This document shows, one piece after another, positions 46,801 through 62,362 of a DNA stretch of 64,000 nucleotides. The notes beneath the pieces were generated by a model. It saw nothing but the letters and a program-made list of their open reading frames with translations. It ran no database searches and was not told where the DNA came from. Positions within the stretch are counted from its first letter, which is position 1. Each line of letters starts with the position of its first letter. The translations under genes were made by a program, and so were the position numbers. Source of the stretch: an uncultured delta proteobacterium (GTDB lineage Bacteria; Desulfobacterota; SM23-61); NCBI GenBank assembly GCA_963760605.1, contig CAVXFA010000075.1, positions 11,237-75,236 of the forward strand, written 5' to 3'.

Positions 46801-47151
46801 ATGGTTGTTATGAAAGAGCAAAGCAAAACGTTAGAAATACGAGTTAGTAAAGCCCTCTATGATAGAGAAGCTATTATCGCGGCTGCTTACGCACTATCTG
46901 GGTTGTGCGGAATCAAAATCGAACCTGCATCTGAGCAGTTTTTAAAAGTGTCATTAGAACCACTTGAACCCCATAATGATTTAGACCTTTCGGAGTTGGA
47001 GCATAAGTTTACGAATGAGCTAATTGATCAACAACTGAGAATTGATCTTGAGAGACGATATGGCCCAATTCGCCAGCTGATTGTACAACATGCCTTCTCT
47101 CCCCTTGAAAATCTCAAGGCCGAGGTCAAGAAAATTGTCGGTCGTGAGTAG
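46801..47151 (+). CDS. hxsD: HxsD-like accessory protein of the His-Xaa-Ser system (tentative).
   Basis: The 116-aa protein sits between the precursor and the rSAM genes. The assignment rests on this context and a general family resemblance. Confidence 0.45.
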   Translation: MVVMKEQSKTLEIRVSKALYDREAIIAAAYALSGLCGIKIEPASEQFLKVSLEPLEPHNDLDLSELEHKFTNELIDQQLRIDLERRYGPIRQLIVQHAFSPLENLKAEVKKIVGRE

Positions 47152-48610
47152 CCGCTATCTGCTCTTACCCTTCCGATTCTGCCGTTTCCCTGGTAAGCCA
47201 GTTCTTTTGGTTAACGAAGTGGGCGAATACATTTTTTTAGATACAGAAGCTTTCGAGAGGATTATCTCTTACCGTCTTGACCGCAGTGAACCGATATTTC
47301 TGGACTTGAAGGGTAAGCACATCCTCACGGACACGGCTGTCACGCCCGTAATCAACCTCCTTTCTACCAAATATAGGACGAAAAAAGCCTTTCTAAAAAC
47401 CTTTACTGCTCTTCATATGATTGTCGTAACACTTCGTTGTAACCACCACTGTAACTACTGTCATGCTTCAAGCCAAGCAGCAGATAGACGCCATTGGGAT
47501 ATGAACCAAGAGACAGCGGAAAATGTGGTCCGAATTATAATGGAAACACCATCTCCGGTAGTCAAAATAGAATTTCAAGGAGGGGAACCACTTCTTAATT
47601 TCGAGATCGTAAAAACTATTGTCCGGGAAGCAAAAAGGATCAATCGACGAAAGGGTAAAGATCTCTCTTTTGTGCTCTGCACTAATCTTACCCTCCTCGA
47701 TAAGCCTACCTTGACATTCCTCAAGAAAGAAAAAATCCTGGTTTCCACGTCGCTAGATGGACCTAAGGAAATCCATGATCGGCACAGGATTATGCGAGAG
47801 GGAGGAAGTAGTTATGATGAATTCATCCATAAACTTAATTACTGCAAGAGTGTATTGGGTCATGAAAGTGTGTCTGCTCTTATGACTGCTACCAAAGATA
47901 GCCTTCCTAACATACAGTCGATTATAGATGAATATGTCAGACTCAATTTTCAGGGCATCTTTTTGCGAAGCCTTAATCCTTACGGTTATGCACGTACTGA
48001 GGCAAATAGGAAAATCTTAGAATATCAAATGGATGAGTTCGTTGAGGCATATAAAAAAGCCTTACTCTATATAATTAAGGTCAACCAAGAAGGAAGGCGT
48101 CTTGTCGAAAATTACGCCACTGTGCTTCTAACAAAAATTCTTACTCCATTTTCCACGGGCTTTGTGGACTTACAATCTCCCACAGGGGCAGGGATAAGTG
48201 GGGCGGTATATAACCATAATGGGGATGTTTATCCTTCTGATGAATCCAGGATGCTGGCCCAGATGGGTGATCGACGATTCTTTATGGGTAATGTAAATAG
48301 GGATTCATACCTATCCATTTTCAAATCTAATGTGCTACATGAACTGATTAAAACTTCCTGTGTAGAAACGCTACCCGGTTGCCATTCATGCGCTCTGCAA
48401 ACCTATTGTGGCGCCGATCCCGTAAGGAATTATGCTACCCAAGGGAACTTAGTCGGGCACCGCCCAACGAGTGATTTCTGTTTCAAACATAGGGAGATAA
48501 TCAGTTTTTTGTTGGACCTCATCGAGCAGGATAATCCAGATACTATTGACGTTTTCTGGTCATGGATAACTAACCGATCCCTCGCTGAGGTAAAAGGTAG
48601 GAACCAATGA
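47144..48610 (+). CDS. hxsB: Radical SAM/SPASM-domain maturase (HxsB-like; anSME-like). The likely start is the GTG at 47144, overlapping the hxsD stop.
   Basis: The CX3CX2C motif is CNHHCNYC. The C-terminal SPASM-like cysteines are in CHSCALQTYCGADP. The start lies in the same frame as ORF 47081..48610. Confidence 0.75.
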   Translation: MSSRYLLLPFRFCRFPGKPVLLVNEVGEYIFLDTEAFERIISYRLDRSEPIFLDLKGKHILTDTAVTPVINLLSTKYRTKKAFLKTFTALHMIVVTLRCNHHCNYCHASSQAADRRHWDMNQETAENVVRIIMETPSPVVKIEFQGGEPLLNFEIVKTIVREAKRINRRKGKDLSFVLCTNLTLLDKPTLTFLKKEKILVSTSLDGPKEIHDRHRIMREGGSSYDEFIHKLNYCKSVLGHESVSALMTATKDSLPNIQSIIDEYVRLNFQGIFLRSLNPYGYARTEANRKILEYQMDEFVEAYKKALLYIIKVNQEGRRLVENYATVLLTKILTPFSTGFVDLQSPTGAGISGAVYNHNGDVYPSDESRMLAQMGDRRFFMGNVNRDSYLSIFKSNVLHELIKTSCVETLPGCHSCALQTYCGADPVRNYATQGNLVGHRPTSDFCFKHREIISFLLDLIEQDNPDTIDVFWSWITNRSLAEVKGRNQ

Positions 48611-49800
48611 GAGAGTTTACCGGGAAGCCAGTGGGCATACTCAAGCCAATTATGGGGATGGTTACTACAAAGTCGTCCGCCAGGAGGGCACAGCAAGTGC
48701 TTTTAGTGTTCCAGCCACGCAATATAGCCCGAAGGCTATTTTCCCGTGTCTCACCTAGTCGTTACACGGCGGCCTGTATGATTTCTGATCACGGTGGCCT
48801 CCCCTTACAAAAGAACATCCCCCATTTGCTCGATTTGTCAGAGGATAATCTCTTTCAATTGCACGATGGCGACATCGTTAAAATAGAGCCCAGCGGCAGG
48901 GTGACTGTGGTTTATGAAGCTAATTCCTTACACAATACTATATTTTTTACGAACATCTGCAATTGCTCATGCGTCATGTGCTCACAGCCTCCGGCCAAGG
49001 ATTCAGAGGACCTCTTGGAGCAGAACCTGATGCTCATTTCCCTACTGGAAAGGCGCAAGGAAAGACATTTGGGGATAACCGGAGGAGAACCTACTATATT
49101 AGCTGAAAACCTTATAAAGTTTATCCAGACGTGCAGGGCGGAATTGCCCAAAACGTCACTAACTTTACTTACCAATGGTAGAAAACTCCAAGATTTCGAG
49201 TTCGCCAGGGCGCTTGTACTTTCTGGATACCCCCGCTTGTTTATGGAGATACCAGTATATGGAGACAATGATACGGAACATGATTCCATAATGGGTGCAA
49301 GTGGGAGCTTCTACGAGACCATACAAGGTCTCCACAACCTTGCACTCTTAAGTCAACCAGTGGGCCTGCGAACAGTACTCCACAGCATGACCATAAAACG
49401 CTTGTGCCAGTACGCCGAATTTGTCTATCGTAACTTACCATTTGTTGTCCAAGTGGCATTCATGGGAATGGAAACTACCGGAGCAGCTAAGGCGAATCTG
49501 GATTGTTTATGGGTAGATCCATATGATTATCGCCATCAACTCGAGTCTGCTGTCAGGTATCTCAATCAAAGAAAGGTGCCAGTTTCAATCTATAATCATC
49601 AACTCTGTACGCTACCTAAAGATTTATGGCCATTTGCCAGGCGGTCCATTAGTACCTGGAAAGAAACTTTCCTGCCACTTTGCGATGAATGCTACGTGAA
49701 GAACTTCTGTTGTGGTATTTTTGGCACGGGCGGAAGGCCTAGCGCCTTTCTCCGTCCCCTTTTCAAGAATGAGCTGCCGAAAGCGTGGCAAGATAACTAG
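48607..49800 (+). CDS. hxsC: Second radical SAM maturase (HxsC-like), translationally coupled to hxsB (ATGA overlap).
   Basis: The CX3CX2C motif lies within NICNCSCVMC. The C-terminus has a Cys cluster CDECYVKNFCCG. Confidence 0.7.
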   Translation: MREFTGKPVGILKPIMGMVTTKSSARRAQQVLLVFQPRNIARRLFSRVSPSRYTAACMISDHGGLPLQKNIPHLLDLSEDNLFQLHDGDIVKIEPSGRVTVVYEANSLHNTIFFTNICNCSCVMCSQPPAKDSEDLLEQNLMLISLLERRKERHLGITGGEPTILAENLIKFIQTCRAELPKTSLTLLTNGRKLQDFEFARALVLSGYPRLFMEIPVYGDNDTEHDSIMGASGSFYETIQGLHNLALLSQPVGLRTVLHSMTIKRLCQYAEFVYRNLPFVVQVAFMGMETTGAAKANLDCLWVDPYDYRHQLESAVRYLNQRKVPVSIYNHQLCTLPKDLWPFARRSISTWKETFLPLCDECYVKNFCCGIFGTGGRPSAFLRPLFKNELPKAWQDN

Positions 49801-49929: not shown

Positions 49930-50109
49930 ATGGCAGAGAAACTCGACCGCAAAGAAATAGTCAGCTTTGAGGAGCTTCTGCTAAGCAATGTTATTGAGCA
50001 GGAGGCCTTGGTCAATTTGCTGGAAGCCAAAGGAGTTATCACAAAAGCCGGCCTGCTCGAAGAAATTAAGAATCTCCGAAATAAGCGCAGAAAACTGAGA
50101 AAAGAATGA
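49930..50109 (+). CDS. Small helical hypothetical protein (59 aa) that is absent from the supplied ORF track because it is under 60 aa.
   Basis: It is a clean ATG..TGA ORF encoding MAEKLDRKEIVSFEELLLSNVIEQEALVNLLEAKGVITKAGLLEEIKNLRNKRRKLRKE, lying 20 nt upstream of the HExxH peptidase gene. Confidence 0.4.
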   Translation: MAEKLDRKEIVSFEELLLSNVIEQEALVNLLEAKGVITKAGLLEEIKNLRNKRRKLRKE

Positions 50110-50129
50110 TAATAAAGGCCTAAGAGGCA

Positions 50130-50537
50130 ATGGAGCTGGATAAGGTTTTTACTGAAGTTGAAATTGAAACCCCGTATTTAGAAAACACCCTCAAGAAGGT
50201 GCTTTCAATCATCAATGGGTATATGGATATTTATACCAACGGATTTGGCTCAATTCACGAAGGTCGAATTTTCGGGAATGAAGGGGTGGTTAGCGAGGCG
50301 GGGGATATTTATTTAGACTCAAAACAATTGCAGAGGCATGACGATGATGTGGCGATGGCGATCATTGCCCACGAGCTTGCTCATTATTATCTTGGCCATC
50401 ACATTAAGTCGGGTAGGGAAGCAGAAAACGAGAAAGATGCTGATGACCTTGCAAAACAATGGGGTTTCAATATTGATAAGATGCGACAAATATTTAGATT
50501 AAGAGGTGTCCAAATAGTTGGCTTGGAGAAAGAATGA
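50130..50537 (+). CDS. ImmA/IrrE-like HExxH zinc metallopeptidase (small).
   Basis: The motif AIIAHELAHYYLGHH (HExxH..H) is present in a protein of 135 aa. Confidence 0.55.
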   Translation: MELDKVFTEVEIETPYLENTLKKVLSIINGYMDIYTNGFGSIHEGRIFGNEGVVSEAGDIYLDSKQLQRHDDDVAMAIIAHELAHYYLGHHIKSGREAENEKDADDLAKQWGFNIDKMRQIFRLRGVQIVGLEKE

Positions 50538-50541
50538 GACA

Positions 50542-51099
50542 AAGATGAAGGCTACAAGAAATCATTTTTTGCGGCTGCTTTTAGCTTTTTTCATACTGCT
50601 CTTTTTCCTACCACTTCAGGCCCAGGAAAAACCGACTCCATGCCCCTCGTTGTCCGTATACTTTTCGCCCAGTCGTGGAAGCACAGAAGCCATCATTAAG
50701 GAATTGGATAATTCTAAAACCTCCGTCCTGGTTCAGGCATTCTCCTTTACCTCTGCTCCTATCGCTAAGGCCCTGCTGAATGCCCACAAACGAGGGGTTA
50801 AGGTCGAAATTATTCTGGACAAAAGCCAAAAGCGGGAGAAATATACTGCCGCTGATTTCTTCGCTAACTCCGGTATTCCGACCAAGATAGACGCAGCCCA
50901 TGCCAAGGCTCATAACAAGGTGATGGTTATTGACGGGGCGACCGTCATCACAGGATCATTCAACTTTACGCGTGCAGCAGAAGAGAAAAACGCCGAGAAT
51001 CTTCTCATCATCAGGGACAAAGCACTGGCCGAGAAGTATACTAAAAACTGGCAGGACCATGCGGGGCATTCAGAGCAGTATGCTGGAAGGGCGCGATAA
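50542..51099 (+). CDS. Secreted phospholipase-D-superfamily nuclease (Nuc-like, HKD motif).
   Basis: A signal peptide is present. The HKD motif lies in AHAKAHNKVMVIDG. The size is typical of Nuc endonucleases. Confidence 0.75.
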   Translation, partial: KMKATRNHFLRLLLAFFILLFFLPLQAQEKPTPCPSLSVYFSPSRGSTEAIIKELDNSKTSVLVQAFSFTSAPIAKALLNAHKRGVKVEIILDKSQKREKYTAADFFANSGIPTKIDAAHAKAHNKVMVIDGATVITGSFNFTRAAEEKNAENLLIIRDKALAEKYTKNWQDHAGHSEQYAGRAR

Positions 51100-51174
51100 G
51101 AGTCATGAAAGATGGGACTTAATACGACTGAAAATAATAGGGCGCATTATCAAGTTCTTCCTGAAGGAGTGATT

Positions 51175-51275
51175 TTGGTATTTTCTTTCAGAATACAATA
51201 ATTCAAAGAGAAATCATTAGCTTTGACCGAAGAATAAATGGACTGGGGGGCAATTTCCCCTTGACGACCCATTCC
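51175..51275. repeat. Second copy of the roughly 100-bp dispersed repeat (see 12505-12612).
   Basis: It aligns to 12505-12612 at about 75 percent identity. Confidence 0.5.
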
Positions 51276-51507
51276 CAGGAGAGCATTTTTTAGGCATGCG
51301 ATTCGACATCTTTTCGATTAACCCATCAAGCTAACCTTTAACCTTCTGGAGGATGTAATTAAAAATAGTTAATTTGCTCGAGGTGGATTTTTGAATAATT
51401 ATTTTAGTCCTTTATTAATTTTCGGAATGTCCCATTTTAAGGTAGTATTTTTCTCTTGACAAGGTTTTTGGGATTTGGTAAGATGTCCTATAAGGAGGTA
51501 GAGATAA

Positions 51508-52383
51508 ATGGACATCACAGAAATCTATGAATTGTATCCTACCCATGATGATTGCCTCGATCACCTTGAAAAAGTTAGGTGGCATGGCACCCCGAAATGT
51601 CCTTACTGTCAATCAAGCAGAACCAGCCCTCTCCCAAAGGAAAAAAGACATCATTGTAATGCTTGTAATACCACATTTAGTGTTACTGTCAAGACCATCT
51701 TTCATCATACCCATTTACCTCTTCAAAAATGGTTTCTGGCTGTTTGCTTAACGCTGAATGCTAAAAAGGGCGTAGCCGCTAGGCAAATGGCCCGTCACGT
51801 TCACGCTAATAAAGATACGGCTTGGCGGATCAACATGAAGATCCGAGAGGCAATGTCTGAAAGAGAACAAAGAGAGCTTTTAACTGGCCTTGTGGAGTGC
51901 GATGAAACGTACATTGGAGGAAAGCCACGGCCTGGGAGTGGACCACATACAAGAGGACGCGGAACAAAGAAAACTCCCGTTGTCGCATTGGCCAAAAGAG
52001 GGGTAAACAATATAAGAGCTGAGGTATTTAAAAACCGGAAGAGATTGAGCGGTAAAAACCTTAAAATGTTAGTCCGAAAAAACGTGGACACCGAGAACGC
52101 AACATTGATTACCGATGAATATAAAGGATACATTGGGATTCAAACTCTTATGCCCCATAAGATCGTTGACCATAGCGTTTGGTATGTCAATGGCGATGCT
52201 CACACCAACACCGTTGAATCTTTTTGGGCTCTCCTAAAACGGGGCATCGTTGGACAGTATCATAAAGTCAGTATGAAGCACTTACCAAAGTACGTTGATG
52301 AGTTTTCTTGTCGTTGGAACCATAGAGAGGACGAAAACCTGTGGGCAACAACTCTACAAAGAGCGCTGGAGGTGAGAGCATGA
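51508..52383 (+). CDS. IS1595-family transposase (N-terminal zinc ribbon plus DDE domain).
   Basis: The zinc ribbon is CPYCQS...CNACNT. The DDE_Tnp_IS1595-like core includes ECDETYIGGK and DEFSCRWNHRE. Confidence 0.8.
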   Translation: MDITEIYELYPTHDDCLDHLEKVRWHGTPKCPYCQSSRTSPLPKEKRHHCNACNTTFSVTVKTIFHHTHLPLQKWFLAVCLTLNAKKGVAARQMARHVHANKDTAWRINMKIREAMSEREQRELLTGLVECDETYIGGKPRPGSGPHTRGRGTKKTPVVALAKRGVNNIRAEVFKNRKRLSGKNLKMLVRKNVDTENATLITDEYKGYIGIQTLMPHKIVDHSVWYVNGDAHTNTVESFWALLKRGIVGQYHKVSMKHLPKYVDEFSCRWNHREDENLWATTLQRALEVRA

Positions 52384-53297
52384 CAAACGATAACCTACAG
52401 ACAATCCATCCAGGAAGTAAACCTGGGGAAATAATAATAGGGGATACTCGGATTCCGTGTTTCGTTTTAGAAGATGGAACAAGGATTTTGTCTGAACTCG
52501 GCGTAACTAAAGCAATGAAATCAAGAAGTGGAGCTTCAAAACGACGCAAAAAGGTGGAGCAAGAAGAGGGGCGTGCCCATTTACCGGTTTTTATGTCCTC
52601 AAATAACCTTGAACCTTTTATTTCTAATGAGTTACGAGCGGGGCTCATTAATCCAATAAAATATCGCATCGGGAAAAGAATCGCCCAGGGGTATCCAGCA
52701 GAATTACTACCGAAAATATGTGAGGTTTGGTTATCAGCCCGAGATGAGAAAAAGCTTCGTAAGGATCAATTAAGAAAATGTAAACAAGCTGAAATCTTAA
52801 TGCGAGCATTGGCCCATGTTGGGATAATTGCACTGGTTGATGAGGCTACAAATTATCAAGAAGTAAGGGACAAGATTGCACTCCAAAAGATTCTTGATAA
52901 ATATCTCTTAGCAGAATACGCAAAGTGGGCAAAGAGATTTCCAGACGAGTTTTATGAGTTAATGTTCAAATTTAAAGGATGGCAATGGAAAGGGATGTCG
53001 GTCAATCGACCAAGTGTGGTAGGAAAATATACTAACGATTTGGTATATGAGCGCTTAGCTCCGGGACTTTTGACGGAGCTAAGAAAACTAAATCCGCCAG
53101 ACGAACAAGGCAGAAGAAAATCAAAACATCAACAATGGCTTACGGAAGATATTGGACATCCCGCACTTCAAAAGCACTTAGCCATTTTGATTGCATTCAT
53201 GAGGGCGGCCCCCAATTGGACGATATTCCATCGAAACGTAGAAAGAGCATTACCAAAACTTGGGGAAACAATTCCAATGGCTTTGGATGAGGATTAA
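52380..53297 (+). CDS. P63C-domain-like protein (tentative; phage-associated family).
   Basis: The ATG overlaps the transposase stop (ATGA). The family resemblance is recalled from memory and is low-confidence. Confidence 0.35.
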   Translation: MTNDNLQTIHPGSKPGEIIIGDTRIPCFVLEDGTRILSELGVTKAMKSRSGASKRRKKVEQEEGRAHLPVFMSSNNLEPFISNELRAGLINPIKYRIGKRIAQGYPAELLPKICEVWLSARDEKKLRKDQLRKCKQAEILMRALAHVGIIALVDEATNYQEVRDKIALQKILDKYLLAEYAKWAKRFPDEFYELMFKFKGWQWKGMSVNRPSVVGKYTNDLVYERLAPGLLTELRKLNPPDEQGRRKSKHQQWLTEDIGHPALQKHLAILIAFMRAAPNWTIFHRNVERALPKLGETIPMALDED

Positions 53298-53300
53298 AAA

Positions 53301-54179
53301 TTGACTACTTTGAAGAAAATGACCAACCTTCGCCCCTTTTTCCACACAAATCGTGGTTTGCTCTATAATACAGATTGTTTCAATCTTTTTGCGTCGCTCA
53401 AGGACGAAACCCTGGACTGCATCTTTGCCGATCCGCCTTTTAATTTGGGAAAGGATTATGGAAACGGTTTTGTCAAAGATGATTTAAAGAGAGATGACTA
53501 TATAGAATGGTGTTTTTCTTGGCTCAATGAATTTGTTCGCCTTATCAAGCCAGGGGGAGCGGTATTTTTATACACGCTTCCACAGTGGGGTTATCATCTA
53601 GCTTTGCACTTAGAAAAATCTAAAATGACCTTTCGGCATTGGATTGCTCTTTCAATGAAGGGAACTTTCCCGAGAGGAAAGAAACTATATCCGGCTCATT
53701 ATGCCCTGCTATATTTTACCAAAGGAATGCCCAAGACATTTAACCGCGTCCGTTTGCCTATTCCCAAATGCCGACACTGCGGAAAGGATATCAAGGATTA
53801 TGGTGGACACAGAAAATATCTTAATCCTCTTGGCCTAAATCTGACGGACTTTTGGGACGACACGGCACCGGCTAGGCATCAAAAGTTCAAATCTCGTTGG
53901 CATATAAACGAACTCAAACCTATGATTCCATCAAGGTGTATAGAAATCTCAACTACTCCCGGAGAAATCGTAATGGATCCGTTTGGTGGTGGAGGATCAA
54001 CTTACGAATCGGCACAGCGGCTTGACCGTTATTGGATTGGAACGGAAATTGGAGATTGCGCAATAATTGAAGAAAGACTTCGAAGAAATTTTTCAAACCT
54101 AGAGAATGATGTGCCCAAGAAGCTAATTAATATCCTACAGAAAGGAAATCGAAAGTTTTCGATTCCACTATCCAAATGA
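53301..54179 (+). CDS. Beta-class DNA methyltransferase (N4-cytosine or N6-adenine), the M subunit of a type II R-M system.
   Basis: The N-terminal DPPF motif (FADPPFNLG) and the C-terminal FxGxG motif (MDPFGGGGST) give a beta-group order. This is the class to which M.BglII and M.BamHI belong. Confidence 0.8.
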   Translation: MTTLKKMTNLRPFFHTNRGLLYNTDCFNLFASLKDETLDCIFADPPFNLGKDYGNGFVKDDLKRDDYIEWCFSWLNEFVRLIKPGGAVFLYTLPQWGYHLALHLEKSKMTFRHWIALSMKGTFPRGKKLYPAHYALLYFTKGMPKTFNRVRLPIPKCRHCGKDIKDYGGHRKYLNPLGLNLTDFWDDTAPARHQKFKSRWHINELKPMIPSRCIEISTTPGEIVMDPFGGGGSTYESAQRLDRYWIGTEIGDCAIIEERLRRNFSNLENDVPKKLINILQKGNRKFSIPLSK

Positions 54180-54724
54180 CAAAAATAGTTGAGGAAGAGT
54201 CCTATAATGGGGCTAAAGAGAGGATTAAAAGACTTGGTCTTGATCCTCTCCTAAGTGAAATCCGTTCAATCATAACCGATTTTAGCCTTCTGGTTAAGGA
54301 ATCAAGGGATGCGAACGGTGGCGCAGCAGTTCGCAAGTTGATGGATGCCCAATTTCAGAAATCAAAGGGATGGTCAAAAAATCAAACGGGTGATGTGGAT
54401 TGGACTAAATGTCAGGTTGTAAATGGTACAAAGGTATGCATTGGTGTTGAGATTCAATTTTCGGCTAGGAGTGATCTATTGGTCATTGATTTGATACACT
54501 TACGGAAAGCTATCGTTAAAGGGCAGATAGATGTTGGCATACTCGTAGTTCCAAGCAATAAACTAGGGGTCTTTCTTACAGATCGGGGTCCTAAAATGGC
54601 AGATGCCAAAAGGCATGTAGTCGAAGCTAAAGCCGAAGATCTTCCTCTGATTCTGATAGCTATTGAACATGATGGCCCTGGCCCGCCGTTGGCCAAGCAG
54701 TTCAAGAGAACATCTGCGGTATAG
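54176..54724 (+). CDS. Type II restriction endonuclease of the BglII/BamHI fold.
   Basis: IGVEIQFSA matches the BglII active-site block LVEVQFSN (the E-x-Q variant of PD-(D/E)xK). The start overlaps the methyltransferase stop. Confidence 0.65.
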   Translation: MTKIVEEESYNGAKERIKRLGLDPLLSEIRSIITDFSLLVKESRDANGGAAVRKLMDAQFQKSKGWSKNQTGDVDWTKCQVVNGTKVCIGVEIQFSARSDLLVIDLIHLRKAIVKGQIDVGILVVPSNKLGVFLTDRGPKMADAKRHVVEAKAEDLPLILIAIEHDGPGPPLAKQFKRTSAV

Positions 54725-54780
54725 ATAATGACTACCTTAAAATGGGACATTCCGTTAATTTTTTCAAGGAGGATTCCACT

Positions 54781-57078
54781 ATGCCACTTCTCCCTGGAAT
54801 TGTTCAAACGTTGTTTGAGTTAGAGGATAATCCAATTCGGTTCGAGCGTGTGTGCCTCGATTTGTACAAAGACGCCGAGGGAGTCGAATTGGTTCCTACT
54901 TCCCGAACCTGGGATTTAGGCCGAGACGGGCGAAGCATTTCGATTTCGAAAAATGGGACTCTTTTAGGGATCCTTTGTGCAACATTGTCTATCGATATAG
55001 ATGGTAAAGTCGAGGCAGATATTCTTCGCCTCGCCGAAACAACAAATACTAGAGCAATAATATATTCTACATCCCGATCGTTGACGGAACACGCTTGTAA
55101 TGTGCTCGAGGCTAAAATTCGGAAATTGTACCCAGCGGTTAAATCCGTCCGTATTTTGGGTCAAATTCAACTTGTTGCTCTAGCAGAACGCTTCGAAAAT
55201 ACAATTCGTAAACATTATGCGGCAGAGATTAAAATTAGCGAGCAAGCTCTTCTGACTGTTCCCAATGAGCCAGAAAATATCGGGCTTCGTCTTGCCCTAA
55301 TTACTCAAACGGGCGATGATGCTCGAATCCTCCGAACCGAACTAACCAGGCGCCTTGTATTAGAAAGTCTTCATAGCCGAGGCTCCCAGAGCGCCGGTAG
55401 TCTTGCCGTGGCGATTTCAGGGCAACTACACCTTTCACGATCAATGACAACTAGTTACATAACTATTATTATATCATCACTAATCGAAGAGGGACTGGTA
55501 TCGAGTGACAAGGATGGCACAATATGCATTACTCCAAACGGCATAACATTTATAAGTGGGGTCCCAAAAGAGGCCAGTGCGAAATTGTTAGAAGGCCGCA
55601 CCGCAATTCGCAGAGAAATAAAAAGGCTGTCTGGGCATACGCTTACAGAGGAACAGTTTGAACGTCTTTGGGATTACTTCCAAGACGGACTTTCGGAAGT
55701 CTTTTATTCCCATGGAGCTGCTATTGTTCGCATGGTAGGTTCCTTGATCACAGGGGAACGAGGCAAACCAGAGCCAAAAACCTATTTGCTCCTCGAAGAA
55801 GTTGGCAACCACATCGGGTCCTTATTCTCTGACCCCATCCAGGGCGATGAGGTACGGCAGGCCATAATCGACATGTTCTCCGAAAAGGAAAGCGAAGCTT
55901 TTAATTGGCTAACGCAGATTTGCAGCGTATATGTGATGATGTGTTCACTAGGATTTGAGGCTTTAAGTTCTGAACAAATTACAAGAGTTCTCAGAAACTT
56001 CCGTCTTGTCCCAGATACTGACATCATTATTTCATTATTATGCGAGGGAGAAAATAACCATAAAGAGGTTTCACATATTGTTAATGGATGGAGACTCTTG
56101 GGCGGAAAAATTCTAATGTCAACCCCTGTCTTGGAGGAAACGGCTTTTCACGCTTGGATTAGTGAACACGATTATGTCCAAATGTGGGAACAGCTTGATC
56201 AAATATCAGATTCAGAAGCCTATCATTTAATTGAAAATGCATTCGTTCGCTCGTTTAGAATTTTATCAAGAGAAAATACGAGTAGGAGGTACTGGAACCA
56301 ATACATCAACCAGTATCGCGGTGAATCAGAACGTGATTACAGTCGTGTAATGCTAATTTTAAGAGAAGATTATGGGTTTGATAGGCTACCTGATGCCGAG
56401 GAGAATTACCAAAATTTTCCCAATAAAGTCAGGATTTTTTTGGCTCAGAAATTGGCCGAAAATATTGGAATAAGTTTTGAAGATTTAAGTTTTAAGATGC
56501 ATGACAAAAGTAGACGTGATGGATCTCTTTTTGGCTCCGTGCTTAGAGCAAGGGATGCATCACGACGGTCAGCGATACAATCTACTACGATTATTCTTTC
56601 CTCTTCGAGATTACTAAAACAGGCAGATCAAGCCTTCCGAAGTGAGCTTGGTGAGCCAGATGCAGTAGTCTCTACGGCCGCAGTGGGGTGTCTGTTGACT
56701 TTAACTCCGGGAGTACTTATGGGGATGGGGACCCTTCGTGAGGTACTTTTCGACTTAGGTTTAGCCACACGGCTAACGCCCATGCAGAGATATGCTTATC
56801 GGCTGATCACAGCATCCGGAGAATTTGACCTTCCTTGGTCCAGACGGGTAACTCTACAGAGGGAATTAGGCGAAAGACTCCTTTCGGACGCAAGAGCAAC
56901 TGGCGACCCTGTGCCTAAGGTCATTGAAAGGGTAATGAAATCTGAAGATCCGGAATTTTCCGTAAAGATGATTGTAAAAGCCTTGGACAATATGGCAGTC
57001 ACGCCCAAAACTGAAAAGGAGCTGCAAAGACTTAGAAAGGAAGTCAAAATATTGGAAGAGAAATTAAAAGCCAGGTAA
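54781..57078 (+). CDS. Large hypothetical protein (about 765 aa) with an N-terminal Mrr-cat-like (restriction-endonuclease-like) motif.
   Basis: FERVCLDLYKDAEGVELVPTSRTWDLGRDGRSIS fits the Mrr_cat pattern (F-E-x-L..G..V..T..D.G.D). The AGGAGG RBS lies 7 nt before the ATG at 54781. No P-loop was seen. The remainder is helical and of unknown function. Confidence 0.5.
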   Translation: MPLLPGIVQTLFELEDNPIRFERVCLDLYKDAEGVELVPTSRTWDLGRDGRSISISKNGTLLGILCATLSIDIDGKVEADILRLAETTNTRAIIYSTSRSLTEHACNVLEAKIRKLYPAVKSVRILGQIQLVALAERFENTIRKHYAAEIKISEQALLTVPNEPENIGLRLALITQTGDDARILRTELTRRLVLESLHSRGSQSAGSLAVAISGQLHLSRSMTTSYITIIISSLIEEGLVSSDKDGTICITPNGITFISGVPKEASAKLLEGRTAIRREIKRLSGHTLTEEQFERLWDYFQDGLSEVFYSHGAAIVRMVGSLITGERGKPEPKTYLLLEEVGNHIGSLFSDPIQGDEVRQAIIDMFSEKESEAFNWLTQICSVYVMMCSLGFEALSSEQITRVLRNFRLVPDTDIIISLLCEGENNHKEVSHIVNGWRLLGGKILMSTPVLEETAFHAWISEHDYVQMWEQLDQISDSEAYHLIENAFVRSFRILSRENTSRRYWNQYINQYRGESERDYSRVMLILREDYGFDRLPDAEENYQNFPNKVRIFLAQKLAENIGISFEDLSFKMHDKSRRDGSLFGSVLRARDASRRSAIQSTTIILSSSRLLKQADQAFRSELGEPDAVVSTAAVGCLLTLTPGVLMGMGTLREVLFDLGLATRLTPMQRYAYRLITASGEFDLPWSRRVTLQRELGERLLSDARATGDPVPKVIERVMKSEDPEFSVKMIVKALDNMAVTPKTEKELQRLRKEVKILEEKLKAR

Positions 57079-57413
57079 ATACCGACAAATACAAGTGGGA
57101 AGGAAATGAGCGCTTATCACTTTCAATCCGTAATTTTCAACGCCCCAACATAGTTCCCCTTATTGATTTGTAACTGTTACCAAAGGTCGCGTTTAAAAAG
57201 CTAGGCGTCAAAACCCGGGTTTTTTTCAACAAGCATTCGTGAAGGGTTGAGTAGTCTCTCACTGCGGAGGGCAGGGATTAAGGTTAAGCCACCAAAAGCT
57301 TTTCAACTTTCACTTTGTCCGGGCTGATAAAAACTGTCTTCTGGTGGGAAAAGGTCACGAAGCCGGGCCCGGCCCCTTTAGGTTTATGTAGATTCTTGAC
57401 GGGCAGGGTAAAG

Positions 57414-57468
57414 GGGACGGTCCTATTTATTGCAGTCCTCAATTTCAAAAAATTGACCCGCCCCGATT
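57414..57468 (+). repeat. Hairpin junction element copy H2 (degenerate variant).
   Basis: The sequence gggacggtcctattt-attgcagtcctcaatttc-aaaaaattgacccgcccc shares the 5' stem and loop start. The 3' half is diverged. Confidence 0.5.
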
Positions 57469-57578
57469 TTCACCAGTTTTCACGGGGGGCGTCGGGCAGC
57501 CGATTTCCTACCGCGGCCACTCATATTTTAGAAATTTATGTTCCTCCGACAATTTCCTTTTAAAGGAATAATATTTAA

Positions 57579-57607
57579 TTGACTACTTTTAAATAAAGTA
57601 GTAATAT
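57579..57607 (+). promoter_or_regulatory. Sigma70-like promoter with an embedded operator palindrome for the AbrB-PIN TA cassette.
   Basis: The -35 box is TTGACT and the -10 box is TAATAT, with a 17-nt spacer. The inverted repeat ACTACTTTtaaatAAAGTAGT spans the spacer. Confidence 0.55.
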
Positions 57608-57641
57608 AAAATGAATGTCAGAAAAAGGAGGTGGATTTGCC

Positions 57642-57875
57642 ATGCAGACTGTCAAGGTATTGCCCAAAGGGCAAATTACCCTTCCCAAACAAGTTAGAAA
57701 AAAGCTTAAGATTGGGGTGGGAGATCGGTTGCTCCTCGAGGAAGACGAAGAAAAAATCGTTCTGAAAAAAGGGAAAACGATATTCGATTATATCGGAAGC
57801 CTGCCCAGTCTGGGAATGTCTACTGAAAAGATGCGCGAAAAAGCTGTCGGGGAGGCAGCCAAGGAAAATGACTAA
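57642..57875 (+). CDS. AbrB/SpoVT-type antitoxin (VapB-like).
   Basis: The swapped-hairpin DNA-binding N-terminus is MQTVKVLPKGQITLPKQVRKKL. The RBS aaggagg is present. The gene overlaps the PIN gene by 8 nt. Confidence 0.75.
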   Translation: MQTVKVLPKGQITLPKQVRKKLKIGVGDRLLLEEDEEKIVLKKGKTIFDYIGSLPSLGMSTEKMREKAVGEAAKEND

Positions 57876-58278
57876 AGCGTTCATTGACACCAGCGTGATT
57901 CTCAGGCTGCTGATCAAGGATGACCGGGCAAAAGCCAGATCTAGCGAAAAACTGTTGAAAGAAGCAGAAAAGCGGGGACTGATCCTGTATTTATTGCCGG
58001 TAGCCATAATGGAGACAGTATGGGTGCTGGAAAAAATTTATAAATTCGAGAGAAAAACCATAAGGGAAATCATAGAAGCCATCCTTAATACCCCGCAGTT
58101 GAAGATTGAGATGGAGACCGTTTTTAGGAAGGCCATAAGGAACTACGAAGAAAAGAATATAAAATTTGCGGATGCCATGATGGGATACTGGGGATTGGAA
58201 AAAGATCTTTCCGTTATGTTTACCTATGACGAAAAGGATTATAAGAGGATTGAAGGCCTCGAGGTTCGAAGACCATGA
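57868..58278 (+). CDS. vapC: PIN-domain toxin VapC (copy 1).
   Basis: The PIN motif FIDTSVIL with acidic residues is present. The gene is paired with the upstream antitoxin. Confidence 0.8.
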   Translation: MTKAFIDTSVILRLLIKDDRAKARSSEKLLKEAEKRGLILYLLPVAIMETVWVLEKIYKFERKTIREIIEAILNTPQLKIEMETVFRKAIRNYEEKNIKFADAMMGYWGLEKDLSVMFTYDEKDYKRIEGLEVRRP

Positions 58279-58546
58279 CCTGCCTGAGCCCGAAAATCCC
58301 AAAGCAATTCCCGAAACCAATCGGTAGTTTCCGTTACCAACGCCTCACCAGAATTCTCTTCGCCCAGTCTTGACGTCGCTCGGTAGTTTTCTTCAATGGC
58401 ATATTTCCGTAACCTCTCCCCTCCCCCCCGGAATAAGCAGGCAAAGAAAATAGAGCTGACCCCGCTGGTGGTTGGCAAAAGCTTGGAAAATTTTAGGAGA
58501 GAGAAAACGTTAATCATGAAAGCTATATTTAAAGGGGACGTTAAAG

Positions 58547-58597
58547 GGGACGGTTCTGTTTATTGCAGTCCTCAATTTCGGAAAATAGTACCGCCCC
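58547..58597 (+). repeat. Hairpin junction element copy H3.
   Basis: The sequence is gggacggttctgttt-attgcagtcctcaatttcgga-aaatagtaccgcccc. It is preceded by the conserved arm ...cttggaaaattttaggagagagaaaacgttaatcatgaaagctatatttaaagg. Confidence 0.7.
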
Positions 58598-58730
58598 AAT
58601 TTTCCAAAGGTCAAACTTTCTCTCAGCGTCCCAGCCTGGCCGCGTACGGGACAAAGCAAACAAGTCGGATTTCCTTGGACTCCTGCAGGCCTGCGGGACA
58701 AAAGGAAATTTCCAATCGGGCATTTTGCAA

Positions 58731-59162
58731 ATGAAAATCGAGCTACGAGAAGACCTCGCTCCGGATCCGGATTTCTATTACCATCAACAATTCAAAATCT
58801 ATGACGAACCCTATTTGATTTGGGGCCGAGAAACATGGAAGGCAGCGCTCAGCGCATGCAGCGTCTATCAGATCGAAGCAGATGGGAGATACGCCGGAGA
58901 CCTGTTATTGGAGGACCAGAGGAAAGGCACCAAGTACATCCTTGACTTCGGCCTTTTGCCCGAGTATCAAGGGAAGGGGGTGGGGAAAGCGGTTGTTGAG
59001 CAGTTCAAGAAATTGGGCGGGAAATTCACTGCTGTCACACGAAAGGAAACTCTTGGTTTCTTCCTGAAATCCGGGTTCGTTTTGCGAAGAACGATAAGGG
59101 ATTATTACCGTCCTGGGGTGGATGGATATTTTATTGCTTTCGATGGAAAAACCAAGGATTAG
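58731..59162 (+). CDS. GNAT-family N-acetyltransferase (copy 1).
   Basis: Motif A is QGKGVGKAVVEQF. The gene is 143 codons long. Confidence 0.7.
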   Translation: MKIELREDLAPDPDFYYHQQFKIYDEPYLIWGRETWKAALSACSVYQIEADGRYAGDLLLEDQRKGTKYILDFGLLPEYQGKGVGKAVVEQFKKLGGKFTAVTRKETLGFFLKSGFVLRRTIRDYYRPGVDGYFIAFDGKTKD

Positions 59163-59277
59163 TATAAAAGGATCATCTCCGAAATAGTTGGCAAGAGCTT
59201 GGAGAATTTTAAGAGAGAAAAAACGTTAGTCATGAAAGCTATAAGCCTTCGGCCTGATGACCTTGATTTTGTTTAAA

Positions 59278-59328
59278 GGGGGCGGGTCTATTTATTGCAG
59301 TCCTCAATTTCGGAAAATAGAACCGTCC
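59278..59328 (+). repeat. Hairpin junction element copy H4.
   Basis: The sequence is ggggcgggtctattt-attgcagtcctcaatttcgga-aaatagaaccgtccc. The conserved arm upstream carries a 35-bp insertion. Confidence 0.65.
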
Positions 59329-59605
59329 CGATTTTCCACTGGCCATTAACCTCTTGTCACTGTGCCGGAGAAAGAACAACCGAATCCGTGTCCCCCTCAT
59401 ACCCATTATTTCATTCCCGTCGAAAACCCGCGAATGCGCGGGAAACCAGCCATAAAAAGAACGGCCGTTTAAAAATTTCTCCCCGCCAATGGATCAAAAT
59501 CGAGGGATTTTATCAAATGCAGAGCCGTCACTCCATAGCCCTTTTCACACCTTACACAAAAAATCAATAATCAAGACTTGAATCCGGATATGAACATTAA
59601 TCTAA

Positions 59606-60019
59606 TTATGGACGTGCCTCAAGGGGTAACTTCGCGAGAATCTGATTATAAATTTCGTGACTGATCTGAAGGGCCTCTTCAGCTTCTTGGTTTGTAGGTT
59701 CTTCCGTCCCTCCGGGGTAGCGGAATTTCCAAGCGTACTCAGTGAGGGGAGCGGCCTTATCAACTAAATCCTTCAAAGTGGGCTCTATTTTGACACATTG
59801 TCGCCCGATTTCCTCCAGACTATGGGTTTTGCGAAACGGAATATCATGCCAGGCCAGAAATCCCTTAAGCGCCTTTTCGATTGCCTGCTGGCAGTGAAAA
59901 ACCACATCTTCAAGCAGTGGAGGCGCCGCCGAAAGTCCGTGTTCAGCACTCCTTAGGTCCTTCTGGGCGTTAACAAGCCAACCGCGAGTGTCTTCCATGC
60001 GAACAGGATCAGGCTGCAT
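59606..60019 (-). CDS. HEPN-domain protein (toxin of a HEPN/MNT pair).
   Basis: The motif HCQQAIEKALKGFLAWHDIPFRKTHSLEEI matches the HEPN signature. The likely start MQPDP at 60019 overlaps the MNT stop by 11 nt. Confidence 0.7.
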   Translation of the reverse strand: MQPDPVRMEDTRGWLVNAQKDLRSAEHGLSAAPPLLEDVVFHCQQAIEKALKGFLAWHDIPFRKTHSLEEIGRQCVKIEPTLKDLVDKAAPLTEYAWKFRYPGGTEEPTNQEAEEALQISHEIYNQILAKLPLEARP

Positions 60020-60374
60020 AAAGCAACCTCCCTTCCGATATGACAGTAAATGGGAGCGAGGCACGGAGGTGAAGTCGGCGATCAAAGGCATCCTGAGTCC
60101 AAACCAGAACATCTGCAGCTATACCCGTACCCCGGAGTACTTCATAGGCTAAACGACTTCGTCTTCGCTCAGGGGGCGCAGACTCGGGGACAACGACCAT
60201 CAGGTCATAGTCACTGTCGCCACCAAAATCACTTCTGGCCCGGGAGCCAAAAAGATAGATACGTTCAGGAAGATATGCGTCAATTAAACGACACACAATC
60301 TCAGCCAGTTTCTTATCGTCCAGGCTTTTTACAGCGTCTTTCCCATCCACTCCATTATGATTCATAAGATCCAC
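60009..60374 (-). CDS. Minimal nucleotidyltransferase (MNT), the antitoxin partner of the HEPN protein.
   Basis: The nucleotidyltransferase motif GSRARSDFGGDSDYDL is present. Confidence 0.75.
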   Translation of the reverse strand: MDLMNHNGVDGKDAVKSLDDKKLAEIVCRLIDAYLPERIYLFGSRARSDFGGDSDYDLMVVVPESAPPERRRSRLAYEVLRGTGIAADVLVWTQDAFDRRLHLRASLPFTVISEGRLLYAA

Positions 60375-60515
60375 CTTTTCTATTATACCTCAGCCAATCC
60401 CATGCCACCAGAATAAGTTAACTTGTGTGATATCCCCGAGCTCTCTTTCTTCTTTGCCCATTATGACCCGGAAGGTTTCGCCCGGAAGACGGAATTATGG
60501 TAAATGGTGGTAAAT

Positions 60516-60566
60516 GGGACGGCTCTATTTATTGCAGTCCTCAATTTCGGAAAATAGAACCGTCCC
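60516..60566 (+). repeat. Hairpin junction element copy H5.
   Basis: The sequence is gggacggctctattt-attgcagtcctcaatttcgga-aaatagaaccgtccc. It is followed by the gattttcaccaattttcacgggggg arm shared with H2. Confidence 0.7.
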
Positions 60567-60698
60567 GATTTTCACCAATTTTCACGGGGGGTGTCGGTCA
60601 GCCAGATCCCTACCGTGACTTCTCATATTGGAAAATTATGATATTACGGATGTTTTAAGATCGTCCGGACAATATATTTTTAGAGGAATAATATTTAA

Positions 60699-60727
60699 TT
60701 GACTACTTTTCAATAAAGTAGTAAAAT
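60699..60727 (+). promoter_or_regulatory. Promoter/operator of the second AbrB-PIN cassette.
   Basis: The -35 box TTGACT and -10 box TAAAAT are separated by 17 nt. The palindrome ACTACTTTtcaatAAAGTAGT is present. Confidence 0.5.
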
Positions 60728-60761
60728 AAAGCCAATGTCAGAAAAAGGAGGCGGATTTGCC

Positions 60762-60995
60762 ATGCAGACTGTCAAGGTATTGCCCAAAGGGCAGATTACC
60801 CTTCCCAAACAAGTTAGAAAAAAGCTTAAGATCGATGTGGGAGATCGGTTGCTCGTTGAGGAAGACGAAGAAAAAATCGTTCTGAAAAAAGGGAAAACAA
60901 TATTCGATTATATCGGAAGCCTGCCCAATCTGGGAATGTCTACTGAAAAGATGCGCGAAAAAGCTGTCGGGGAGGCAGCCAAGGAAAATGACTAA
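60762..60995 (+). CDS. AbrB/SpoVT-type antitoxin (copy 2).
   Basis: It is about 95 percent identical to 57642..57875. Confidence 0.75.
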   Translation: MQTVKVLPKGQITLPKQVRKKLKIDVGDRLLVEEDEEKIVLKKGKTIFDYIGSLPNLGMSTEKMREKAVGEAAKEND

Positions 60996-61398
60996 AGCGT
61001 TCATTGACACCAGCGTGATTCTCAGGCTGCTGATCAAGGATGACCCGGTGAAAGCCAGATCTTGCGAAAAACTGTTGAAAGAAGCAGAACAGCGGGGACT
61101 GATTCTATATTTATTACCGGTAGCCATAATGGAGACTGTATGGGTGTTGGAAAAAATTTATAAATTCGAGAGAAAAACCATAAGGGAAATCATAGAAGCC
61201 ATCCTTAATACCCCGCAGTTGAAGATTGAGATGGAGACCGTTTTTAGGAAGGCCATAAGGAACTACGAAGAAAAGAATATAAAATTTGCGGATGCCATGA
61301 TGGGATACTGGGGACTGGAAAAAGATCTTTCCATTATATTTACCTATGACGAAAAGGATTATAAGAAGATTGAAGGCCTCGAGGTTCGAAAACCATGA
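60988..61398 (+). CDS. vapC: PIN-domain toxin VapC (copy 2).
   Basis: It is about 93 percent identical to 57868..58278. Confidence 0.8.
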   Translation: MTKAFIDTSVILRLLIKDDPVKARSCEKLLKEAEQRGLILYLLPVAIMETVWVLEKIYKFERKTIREIIEAILNTPQLKIEMETVFRKAIRNYEEKNIKFADAMMGYWGLEKDLSIIFTYDEKDYKKIEGLEVRKP

Positions 61399-61658
61399 CA
61401 GGCCCTAGTCCGAAAATCCCAAAGCAATTCCCAAAACCAATCGGTAGTTTCCGTTACCAACGCCTCACCTGAATTCTCTTCGCCCAGTCTTGACGTCGCT
61501 CGGTAGTTTTCTTCAATAGCGTATTTCCATAACCTGTCCCTGCCCCCTGGAATAAGCAGGCAAAGAAAATAGACCCCGCTGGTGGTTGGCAAAAGCTTGG
61601 AAAATTTTAAGAGAGAAATAACGTTAATCATGAAAGCTATATTTAAAGGTATTTAAAG

Positions 61659-61709
61659 GGGACGGTTCTATTTATTGCAGTCCTCAATTTCGGAAAATAG
61701 AACCGTCCC
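61659..61709 (+). repeat. Hairpin junction element copy H6 (perfect consensus).
   Basis: The sequence is gggacggttctattt-attgcagtcctcaatttcgga-aaatagaaccgtccc. The upstream tatttaaagg is tandemly duplicated. Confidence 0.75.
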
Positions 61710-61842
61710 AATTTTCCAAAGGTCAAACTTTCTCCCAGCATCCCACCCTAGCCGTGTACGGGACAAAGTAGACAAGTCGGATTTCCTTGGACTCCGGTAG
61801 GCCTGCGGGACAAAAGGGAATTTCCAATCGGGCATTTTGCAA

Positions 61843-62274
61843 ATGAAAATCAAGTTACGACAAGACCTCGCTCCAGACCCGGATTTCTATTACCATCAAC
61901 AGTTTAAAATCTATCACGAGCCCTATTTGATTTGGGACAAAGAAACATGCGAGTTGGCGCTCAGCGCATGCAGCGTCTATCAGATCGAAGTAGATGGGAG
62001 ATACGCCGGAGACCTGTTATTGGAGGACCAGAGGGAAGGTACCAAGTACATCCTTGACTTCGGCCTTTTGCCCGAGTATCAGGGGAAGGGGTTGGGAAAA
62101 GCGGTTGTTGAGCAGTTCAACAAAATGGGCGGGAAATTCACTGCTGTCACGCGAAAGGAAACTCTTGGTTTTTTCCTGAAATCCGGGTTCGTTTTGCGAA
62201 GAACGATAAGGGATTATTACCGTCCTGGGGTGGATGGATATTTTATTGCTTTCGATGGAAAAACCAAGGATTAG
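61843..62274 (+). CDS. GNAT-family N-acetyltransferase (copy 2).
   Basis: It is about 93 percent identical to 58731..59162. Confidence 0.7.
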   Translation: MKIKLRQDLAPDPDFYYHQQFKIYHEPYLIWDKETCELALSACSVYQIEVDGRYAGDLLLEDQREGTKYILDFGLLPEYQGKGLGKAVVEQFNKMGGKFTAVTRKETLGFFLKSGFVLRRTIRDYYRPGVDGYFIAFDGKTKD

Positions 62275-62362
62275 TATAAAAGGATCATCTCCGAAATAGT
62301 TGGCAAGAGCTTGGAGAATTTTAAGAGAGAAAAAACGTTAATCATGAAAGCTATATTTAAAG

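Follow-up and report, generated by a model that had tools for sequence, protein, structure and literature searches.

An IS1595-family insertion sequence with restriction-modification cargo beside the gene for a predicted multidomain nuclease in an uncultured delta proteobacterium

The contig CAVXFA010000075.1 (assembly GCA_963760605.1) of an uncultured delta proteobacterium carries five adjoining genes in the 64,000-nucleotide stretch that we analyzed, which is called the window here. In order, the genes encode a transposase of the IS1595 family of insertion sequences (IS), a protein with a P63C domain, a DNA methyltransferase (MTase), a type II restriction endonuclease (REase), and a large protein of 765 amino acids (aa). 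An earlier note on this DNA had interpreted the five genes as a single defense islet. Its five open reading frames (ORFs) are all present, the first four at the coordinates listed in Table 1 and the fifth, as it was then delimited, at 54742-57078. The close packing of these genes provokes a question: do they constitute one unit, or does the locus combine genes of separate origin?

The boundaries of the mobile DNA were read at the junctions and checked by script, and they answer much of this question. The IS occupies window positions 51423-54754 (3332 bp). Its ends are inverted repeats of 24 bp that are perfectly complementary, and the repeats are flanked on both sides by the same 8-bp sequence; the chance of an 8-bp match at a fixed position is ~1.5e-5. 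A repeat scan of window 50000-64000 (14 kb) reported no more than two inverted pairs with a length of 20 nt or above. The 38-nt pair among them (51417-51454 and 54723-54760, 87% complementary) encloses exactly the transposase, P63C, MTase, and REase genes. Repeats and duplication of this kind are the signature of an insertion by a DDE transposase with an 8-bp target duplication, and three traits of the IS1595 family are found here: a zinc-ribbon DDE transposase, inverted repeats at the termini, and a target duplication of 8 bp. Because the inverted repeats and the duplication bound the transposase, P63C, MTase, and REase genes, these four genes make up one transposable element. That its ends and the duplication are perfect points to a recent insertion event.

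Excision of the IS together with one copy of the duplication in silico restores an intact intergenic region, in which a nuclease gene of the PLD family (ending at 51099) is followed by the gene for the 765-aa protein. At the pre-insertion site, CCTTTATTAATTTT would have joined TTCAAGGAGGATTCCACTATGCC directly, with a single TTAATTTT at the junction. The IS would thus have landed 3 bp upstream of the ribosome-binding site (RBS) of the 765-aa gene and 26 bp upstream of its start codon. In such an event, the transposase would bind the 24-bp ends and insert the element via an 8-bp staggered cut. From these data, we consider it probable (roughly 80%) that the four-gene block and the large ORF are two independent entities: an intact IS1595-family transporter IS and, beside the insertion, a resident gene for a predicted multidomain nuclease.

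Table 1. Features of the insertion sequence, the resident gene, and the nearby hairpin repeats (positions in the window).
Feature	Position	Strand	Remarks
Target-site duplication, left copy	51415..51422		TTAATTTT; 8/8 same as 54755-54762
Left terminal inverted repeat	51423..51446	+	CGGAATGTCCCATTTTAAGGTAGT; 24/24 complementary to 54731-54754
Promoter-like site inside the left end of the IS	51456..51484	+	TTGACA, 17 nt, TAAGAT, extended TG; 10/12 consensus, consensus match only
IS1595-family DDE transposase, N-terminal zinc ribbon, 291 aa	51508..52383	+	Pfam and NCBIfam
P63C-domain protein, 305 aa from ATG 52380 (318 aa from GTG 52341)	52380..53297	+	Pfam P63C 7e-34; phrog_2384 4.8e-100
Beta-class N6/N4 DNA MTase, cargo gene 1, 292 aa from TTG 53301 (ATG at 53319)	53301..54179	+	
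BamHI/BglII-fold type II REase, cargo gene 2, 182 aa	54176..54724	+	
Right terminal inverted repeat	54731..54754	-	
Target-site duplication, right copy	54755..54762		TTAATTTT
RBS AAGGAGG	54766..54772	+	8 nt upstream of ATG 54781
Resident gene, corrected start, 765 aa, unnamed family	54781..57078	+	Identical to public call P0001
Predicted Mrr/FokI-like PD-(D/E)xK-fold domain, residues 1-160	54781..55260	+	Without canonical (Q/E)xK
Predicted winged helix-turn-helix, residues ~165-262	55273..55566	+	
Predicted all-helical linker domain, residues 263-404	55567..55992	+	Model secondary structure
Predicted PIN domain with ~130-residue helical insertion, residues 405-660	55993..56760	+	
Predicted C-terminal helical region ending in a long helix, residues 661-765	56761..57075	+	AlphaFold model
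Hairpin repeat copies	45150-45172, 57424-57446, 58557-58579, 59289-59311, 60526-60548, 61669-61691, 62373-62395, 63828-63850	+	

The assignments of the genes within the IS bear out most of what the earlier note had said of them. The transposase matches the Pfam families DDE_Tnp_IS1595 (PF12762, 6.6e-34) and Zn_ribbon_IS1595 (PF12760, 9e-10), as well as the NCBIfam model transpos_IS1595 (NF033547) at 3.2e-55 (187 bits, cutoff 75). Its stop codon overlaps the start of the P63C gene in an ATGA at 52380, so the coupling that had been described for these two genes is indeed present. The MTase (Pfam N6_N4_Mtase, PF01555, 2.4e-34; PADLOC MTase_II, 6.1e-93) had been placed in the beta class from its DPPF and FxGxG motifs; its DPPF starts at residue 44, its FGGGG lies at residue 228, and this is the order of the beta class. 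Its stop, in turn, overlaps the start of the REase gene (ATGA at 54176). The REase contains the block IGVEIQFSA at residue 89, previously recognized as BglII-type, and it scores above the cutoff of Pfam Endonuc-BglII (PF09195, 8e-8, 32.6 bits vs. 26); its match to PADLOC REase_II is weak (3.4e-4). By these motifs, a type II restriction-modification (R-M) pair is present, comprising a stand-alone methyltransferase that has motifs I and IV and a neighboring endonuclease with a PD-(D/E)xK-type motif.

The REase shares with the type IIP enzymes BamHI and BglII the Endonuc-BglII match above threshold, a D...E-x-Q triad, and a methyltransferase partner, but its sequence similarity to them is very low and, at 182 aa, it is shorter. 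The catalytic residues of BamHI and BglII provide a frame for the comparison. In a weak alignment with BamHI (E 0.46), D75, E92, and Q94 of the REase lie opposite D94, E111, and E113, which is a weak indication of BamHI-like spacing combined with a Gln in third place, as in BglII. The MTase bears DPPF, whereas SPPY is typical of N4-cytosine methyltransferases. Given the low similarity of the REase, its short length, and the DPPF of the MTase, a specificity for AGATCT or GGATCC should not be assumed. As cargo, the pair would methylate host DNA and cut unmethylated incoming DNA; it may also stabilize the IS by post-segregational killing, which would penalize loss of the element.

The exact 24-mer end recurs in 27 metagenome stretches. 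Where there was enough sequence, the 24-mer was adjoined by a transposase of 59-74% and a P63C protein of 33-64% amino-acid identity, and all related elements that were checked (L015, L024, L034, L061, and others) have P63C beside the transposase. The cargo varies among the complete elements. The 3332-bp element of the window, with the duplication TTAATTTT, carries the MTase and the BamHI/BglII-fold REase, and in L015 (3112 bp, duplication TTATTAAT) the cargo is a methyltransferase of 438 aa with a fused Mrr_cat domain. L034 (2984 bp, duplication ATATTTTT) has a SocA/Panacea antitoxin gene and a 139-aa ORF; L061 (2843 bp, duplication ATTTTCTT), whose transposase is 88% identical, has a 278-aa ORF of no known family; L024 (2742 bp, no duplication) has a 126-aa ORF, also of no known family. 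R-M is therefore the cargo in 2/5 complete elements. Because the relatives keep the transposase and P63C genes and differ in what follows, these two genes are the conserved part of the element, and what lies after P63C serves as a slot for cargo.

The P63C gene is a conserved part of this type of IS and not a stray phage ORF; the P63C domain named by the earlier note stands, and the phage association that it drew from this domain does not. We considered whether P63C is regularly paired with IS1595 transposases on plasmids and rejected the idea, as no link was seen in the three plasmid contexts inspected. Since the plasmid and phage contexts of P63C that were inspected (n=3) lack an IS1595 transposase, the association appears to be specific to this IS lineage. 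A literature search on P63C returned just unrelated uses of the term.

Three further observations concern the ends of these elements. First, the 22-24-nt IS end is identical between window 51423-51446 and L009-L035, though the transposases are 59-74% identical as proteins and the DNA of the elements is ~65-71% identical; such conservation would be unusually strong for transposase binding sites. Second, a 50-bp element (L025 1313-1362 and L033 390-439) consists of both IS ends joined by 4 nt, CGGAATGTCCCATTTTAAGGTAG-CAGA-CTACCTTAAAATGGGACATTCCG. This palindrome of left and right inverted repeats (IRL-IRR) could be a minimal miniature inverted-repeat transposable element, the footprint of an excision, or the relic of a circle junction from this type of IS. 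Third, metagenome loci that have the repeat only were tried as elements with giant cargo, and the candidate was rejected because the adjoining genes are housekeeping genes (MoeA, DegT, RNase III, Fur); for the same reason, these loci are probably solo or remnant repeats.

How does this element compare with mobile units that have been described before? The IS1595 family is the basis on which passenger-carrying "transporter IS" were defined, according to Siguier et al. (2009) as cited in PMC3129680 and PMC11891212. The element of the window is like the transporter IS of this family (the ISNha5, ISNwi1+, and ISPna2+ groups) in its zinc ribbon and DDE transposase, inverted repeats, 8-bp duplication, and passenger genes. 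It is unlike them in that its conserved second gene is P63C and its cargo is a complete type II R-M pair. Members of the ISNha5 group in the ISfinder tables, which we take to span 3.4-7.9 kb and to end in CGGnnTT, come near the CGGAATG of the window IS. Furuta, Abe & Kobayashi (2010, PMC2853133) reported R-M units that are bordered by inverted repeats and have duplications of 8 bp, one of them a Neisseria unit with a remnant of a COG3677 transposase. The present element resembles those units in that R-M genes lie within inverted repeats, imperfect or perfect, and next to an 8-bp duplication; it differs from them in its intact transposase and in belonging to an element family that can be traced across metagenomes with alternative cargo. 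An IS that bears an R-M pair is thus ordinary, of a kind already described, and neatly documented here.

The gene that follows the right end of the IS had been read as a 778-aa ORF served by a strong RBS. The ATG of that reading (54742) falls within the right inverted repeat of the IS. The AAGGAGG serves the ATG at 54781 instead, the N-termini of all homologs agree with this start, and the product has 765 aa. A word-indexed search returned 88 homologs of 31-68% identity, all "hypothetical" and nearly all 750-800 aa long; in an exhaustive profile search, 1047 representative clusters (50% identity) were found at E up to 1e-3 and 347 at E up to 1e-30. Among 41 diverse members of the family, 36 columns are invariant. 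The copy in the window deviates at 1 of the 97 columns that are conserved in at least 90% (C96S), which argues that it is intact. No match to the protein was found in Pfam, NCBIfam, PADLOC-DB v2.0.0 (0 families, E up to 0.01), PHROGs, or the sequences of the PDB. Some members have N-terminal extensions of 50-180 residues before the conserved 765-aa body (P0205, 943 aa; P0153, 846 aa; P0155, 802 aa); such extensions could point to other fusions with sensors or effectors.

The insertion may also have changed the expression of the resident gene. No plus-strand terminator-like site occurs from the promoter-like site of the IS to the end of the REase gene, and none occurs in the spacer between the REase and 765-aa genes; the single such site on the plus strand (56670-56688) is inside the 765-aa ORF. 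With no plus-strand terminator-like site ahead of it, the 765-aa gene is now probably transcribed by read-through from the IS.

An AlphaFold model built on the family alignment (predicted local distance difference test, pLDDT, 87.9; predicted template-modeling score, pTM, 0.84) divides the 765-aa protein into five parts (Table 1). Both a PD-(D/E)xK alpha/beta fold (residues 1-160) and a PIN fold (residues 405-660) are present in the predicted structure. The earlier note had likened the N-terminus to Mrr-cat while finding (Q/E)xK not obvious, and both observations agree with the model: the predicted fold is Mrr-like, and the strand in question reads C-A-T. Its treatment of the remainder as featureless (helical, with no recognizable ATPase, helicase, or methyltransferase motifs) does not hold up, as a winged helix and a PIN domain with invariant acids are predicted there.

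In the Mrr-like domain, the invariant residues are R20, F21, E22, T40, D45, R48, D49, K76, D80, E103, and Q130, and the domain conserves an R-F-E in helix 1 as well as a loop, T-S-x-T-W-D-x-G-R-D-G-R. The strand that would hold (Q/E)xK is L-C-A-T-L (C66-A67-T68) in nearly all members. The Asp loop is kept (D45, D49), and the invariant K76 and D80 lie on the helix that follows the strand. Compared with the Mrr_cat nucleases (E. coli Mrr, MspJI/AspBHI, the type ISP enzyme LlaBIII, and the Avs4 effector), the N-terminus is alike in a fold-level match over 114-126 residues, the helix-1 FE motif, and the D-x-G-x-D loop; it is unlike them in having C-A-T in place of (Q/E)xK, in the placement of K76/D80 on the next helix, and in the poor modeling of the conserved-Asp loop. 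The order of domains also differs. In E. coli Mrr, the nuclease domain comes after the winged helix, whereas here the Mrr-like domain is N-terminal to it.

In the PIN domain, D412, D414, E453, D519, D580, and S608 are invariant, and the motifs are LVPDTD (D412, D414), PVLEE (E452, E453), and RRD (D580). Compared with the VapC-type PIN ribonucleases, the domain shows a near full-length structural alignment to VapC21, VapC26, and VapC11 and shares with them hhhDTD, PVLEE, and the third invariant Asp. In contrast to VapC, it is embedded in 765 aa, contains a helical insertion of ~130 residues, has no adjoining antitoxin gene, and carries Ser-Ser at the fourth position.

Family members were also scanned separately against Pfam, and Mrr_cat, PIN/PIN_3, and the winged-helix families were the only recurrent matches. 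Mrr_cat (PF04471) matched 14/31 N-terminal domains, with residues ~15-113 on profile positions 3-100. The window protein scored 12.2 bits, below the gathering threshold of 21; the best member in a ten-member scan was P0003 (18.9 bits, E 0.0017), and the best E among the 31 N-terminal domains was 6.7e-4. PIN matched 6/41 members and PIN_3 11/41, with residues 404-463 on profile positions 1-50, the span on which LVPDTD and PVLEE fall. P0066 reached 23.9 bits (cutoff 23.6), and the window protein had no PIN match. Winged-helix models recurred at residues 221-261. With the full model, Foldseek matched nothing in the whole PDB at E up to 0.001, the query-normalized TM-score (template-modeling score) being at most 0.13, so the full-length protein has no solved analogue. 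The profile of the whole family against the PDB gave just a marginal match to the winged helix of S19e; a profile of the N-terminal half of the PIN region had no PIN match among PDB sequences, and hhalign of the PIN region with the VapC encoded in the window itself gave a probability of at most ~1%. Taken from the model, the degenerate Mrr-like domain and the winged helix probably bind nucleic acid, and the PIN domain, with its acidic site D412/E453/D580, probably does the cutting. The long C-terminal helices may mediate oligomerization.

What, then, does the 765-aa protein do? We examined its family at loci found by exact protein (6) and by a scan of species-representative genomes (25), two of which were found both ways. 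The loci come from Acidobacteriota, Chloroflexota, Planctomycetota, Gemmatimonadota, Dormibacterota, Myxococcota, and Proteobacteria. In a survey of three genes on each side at 26 loci, the 150 neighbor genes were compared by all-against-all BLAST. A conserved partner (antitoxin, ATPase, or methylase) was sought and rejected, as no neighbor cluster occurs in more than 2/26 loci, and the four Acidobacteriaceae genomes share no synteny. Matches to defense models were few among the 150 genes (Old, type IIG R-M, PDC-S02, and generic MTases), with no family in more than four; these are raw counts. The family has no copy in 72,556 plasmids or 50,697 phage records. One IMG/VR member was found (L063 7665-9962, IMGVR_UViG_3300017821_000054), full length and 33% identical, on a contig classed as viral. 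Because it has no conserved neighbor and a patchy spread, the 765-aa gene appears to be an accessory gene that stands alone and passes from genome to genome.

A defense role for such a gene is plausible. Tentatively, and at rather less than even odds, we propose that the protein is a single-gene conflict or defense nuclease (defense or abortive infection) whose N-terminal modules control the PIN effector. A broader and more doubtful proposal covers the two halves of the locus separately. According to it, the family would be a single-gene immune or abortive-infection nuclease in which the rewired Mrr-like domain and the winged helix recognize invading, possibly modified, DNA and license the PIN ribonuclease; the transposase-P63C elements would, independently of this, be an IS1595 subgroup specialized in shuttling addiction and defense cargo (R-M, fused MTase-Mrr, Panacea toxin-antitoxin), with P63C as an accessory of transposition or regulation.

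The alternative that survives best is that the 765-aa protein is a chromosomal regulator or an RNA/DNA-processing factor of ordinary physiology, in which a winged-helix DNA binder is combined with a PIN RNase and a nuclease-like domain that is inactive. We regard this as unlikely, but it fits several of the observations: housekeeping genes are found in 4/6 gene-level contexts (ABC transporter, PmbA/TldD, GlnA/NadE/P-II, peptidase M3), a mere handful of the 150 neighbors match defense models, copies are absent from the plasmid and phage records and present on one IMG/VR contig, and the canonical Mrr catalytic motif is lost. On the other hand, an ordinary role is at odds with the lack of synteny even among the four Acidobacteriaceae genomes and with the patchy distribution over at least seven phyla. 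Some loci, moreover, have neighbors of the conflict type, namely an OLD-family nuclease, an Mrr_cat gene with HsdR nearby, a type IIG R-M system, and serine recombinases, and the copy in the window sits among a PLD nuclease, toxin-antitoxin (TA) genes, a HEPN/nucleotidyltransferase (NT) module, and IS elements. The earlier note had made its defense interpretation depend on a nuclease fold and on enrichment of homologs in defense islands. The former is borne out by the predicted PD-(D/E)xK and PIN folds; the latter comes close to failing, as no clear enrichment was seen.

It is more improbable still that the IS is a fossil, with a transposase that no longer moves it and an inactive R-M pair, or a unit mobilized only in trans. 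The element is present in a single copy within the 64-kb window, metagenomes contain solo repeats and 50-bp IRL-IRR remnants, and AGATCT and GGATCC are not avoided as recognition sites; none of the four ORFs, however, is disrupted, their junctions are coupled, the 24-bp ends and 8-bp duplication are perfect, and the transposase domains are covered over their full length. Least probable is the notion that the five genes are one co-selected defense islet, in which the large protein would partner the R-M pair in a manner like type IV restriction or abortive infection: the genes do share one strand and short or overlapping junctions, have no plus-strand terminator-like site between them (so that they may be co-transcribed now), are followed by TA cassettes, and recur in the same arrangement on an independent assembly (L001), but the notion is largely refuted by the element boundaries, as the inverted repeats and target duplication confine the IS to the first four genes and place the large gene outside the mobile unit, related IS copies bear other cargo and are not beside the 765-aa gene, and the 26 homolog loci have no neighbor family in common. 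The adjacency of the large gene to the R-M pair, to which the earlier note had attached meaning, is an accident of insertion; R-M is not a conserved neighbor at those 26 loci.

Several points weigh against our preferred reading, in which an intact transporter IS lies beside a resident gene for a predicted multidomain nuclease. The duplication is the one observation from which the insertion is deduced, and L024 has no target duplication. When avoidance of AGATCT and GGATCC was looked for in the window, none was seen; for an R-M pair that arrived recently, this absence would be uninformative. For the resident protein, sequence-level support for the domains is weak but consistent, with matches at or below the Pfam thresholds bar one. 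The fourth canonical acid of the PIN domain is replaced by S607-S608, and the D45-R51 segment has low confidence in the model. Finally, the protein has no match in PADLOC, and most neighbors of its homologs are metabolic or housekeeping genes.

The remainder of the surroundings contains several other small modules. Upstream of the IS, on the plus strand within 50130-51099, lies the PLD-family nuclease gene (193 aa, PLDc_2 3.2e-28), whose product is NucT/DrmC-like and has a hydrophobic, signal-peptide-like N-terminus. Its start is overlapped by a 135-aa HExxH metalloprotease-like ORF with weak M48, SprT, and Lit matches, on the same strand and in the same interval. These two genes were the upstream neighbors of the 765-aa gene before the IS arrived, and they are not conserved beside its homologs. 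Further upstream, on the plus strand at 47081-49800, two overlapping radical-SAM genes (509 and 397 aa) precede a 59-aa ORF; the pair may serve in peptide maturation.

Downstream of the 765-aa gene, a HEPN gene (168 aa, Pfam HEPN 4.9e-23) overlaps a 121-aa ORF resembling a minimal nucleotidyltransferase (MNT) on the minus strand at 59606-60374. Only the HEPN member was scanned; judged by sequence, the pair has the typical layout of a HEPN/MNT toxin-antitoxin system. A block of ~1.3 kb is duplicated 3.1 kb apart with 91-94% identity (57548-58840 and 60668-61952). In it, a MazE/AbrB-type antitoxin is encoded together with a PIN toxin (57615-58278 and 60735-61398), and a gene for a GNAT acetyltransferase begins. 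A hairpin repeat of ~55-74 nt occurs in eight copies (GGGACGGTTCTATTT, a 21-nt loop, AAATAGAACCGTCCC; RNA fold -26.1 kcal/mol, z -5.2). The repeats are 0.7-1.5 kb apart and separate the small TA, GNAT, and HEPN/NT modules; the copy at 45150 lies outside this array, and the repeat is therefore not confined to it. Arranged in this way, the repeats recall either an integron-like array of cassettes or a repetitive extragenic palindromic (REP)/terminator element. The hairpins were considered as attC sites of an integron that would have the 765-aa gene among its cassettes; no integrase was present among the ORFs checked at 38-50 kb, and no clear R'/R'' attC core was seen by eye.

The separation of the locus into two entities bears on how each should be regarded. 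The R-M pair is to be annotated as mobile cargo of an IS and not as a fixed defense island, with the P63C gene as part of the IS, and the element provides a concrete case of R-M and TA modules hitch-hiking on IS1595-type elements in uncultured bacteria. The family of the 765-aa protein comprises ~1000 clusters at 50% identity that have no counterpart in Pfam, PADLOC, or the PDB, yet its confident model has two nuclease-type domains and a DNA-binding domain. Should the gene truly be one of defense, a new single-protein architecture would be gained; otherwise, the family would be a widespread, nameless nucleic-acid-processing factor of soil and sediment phyla.

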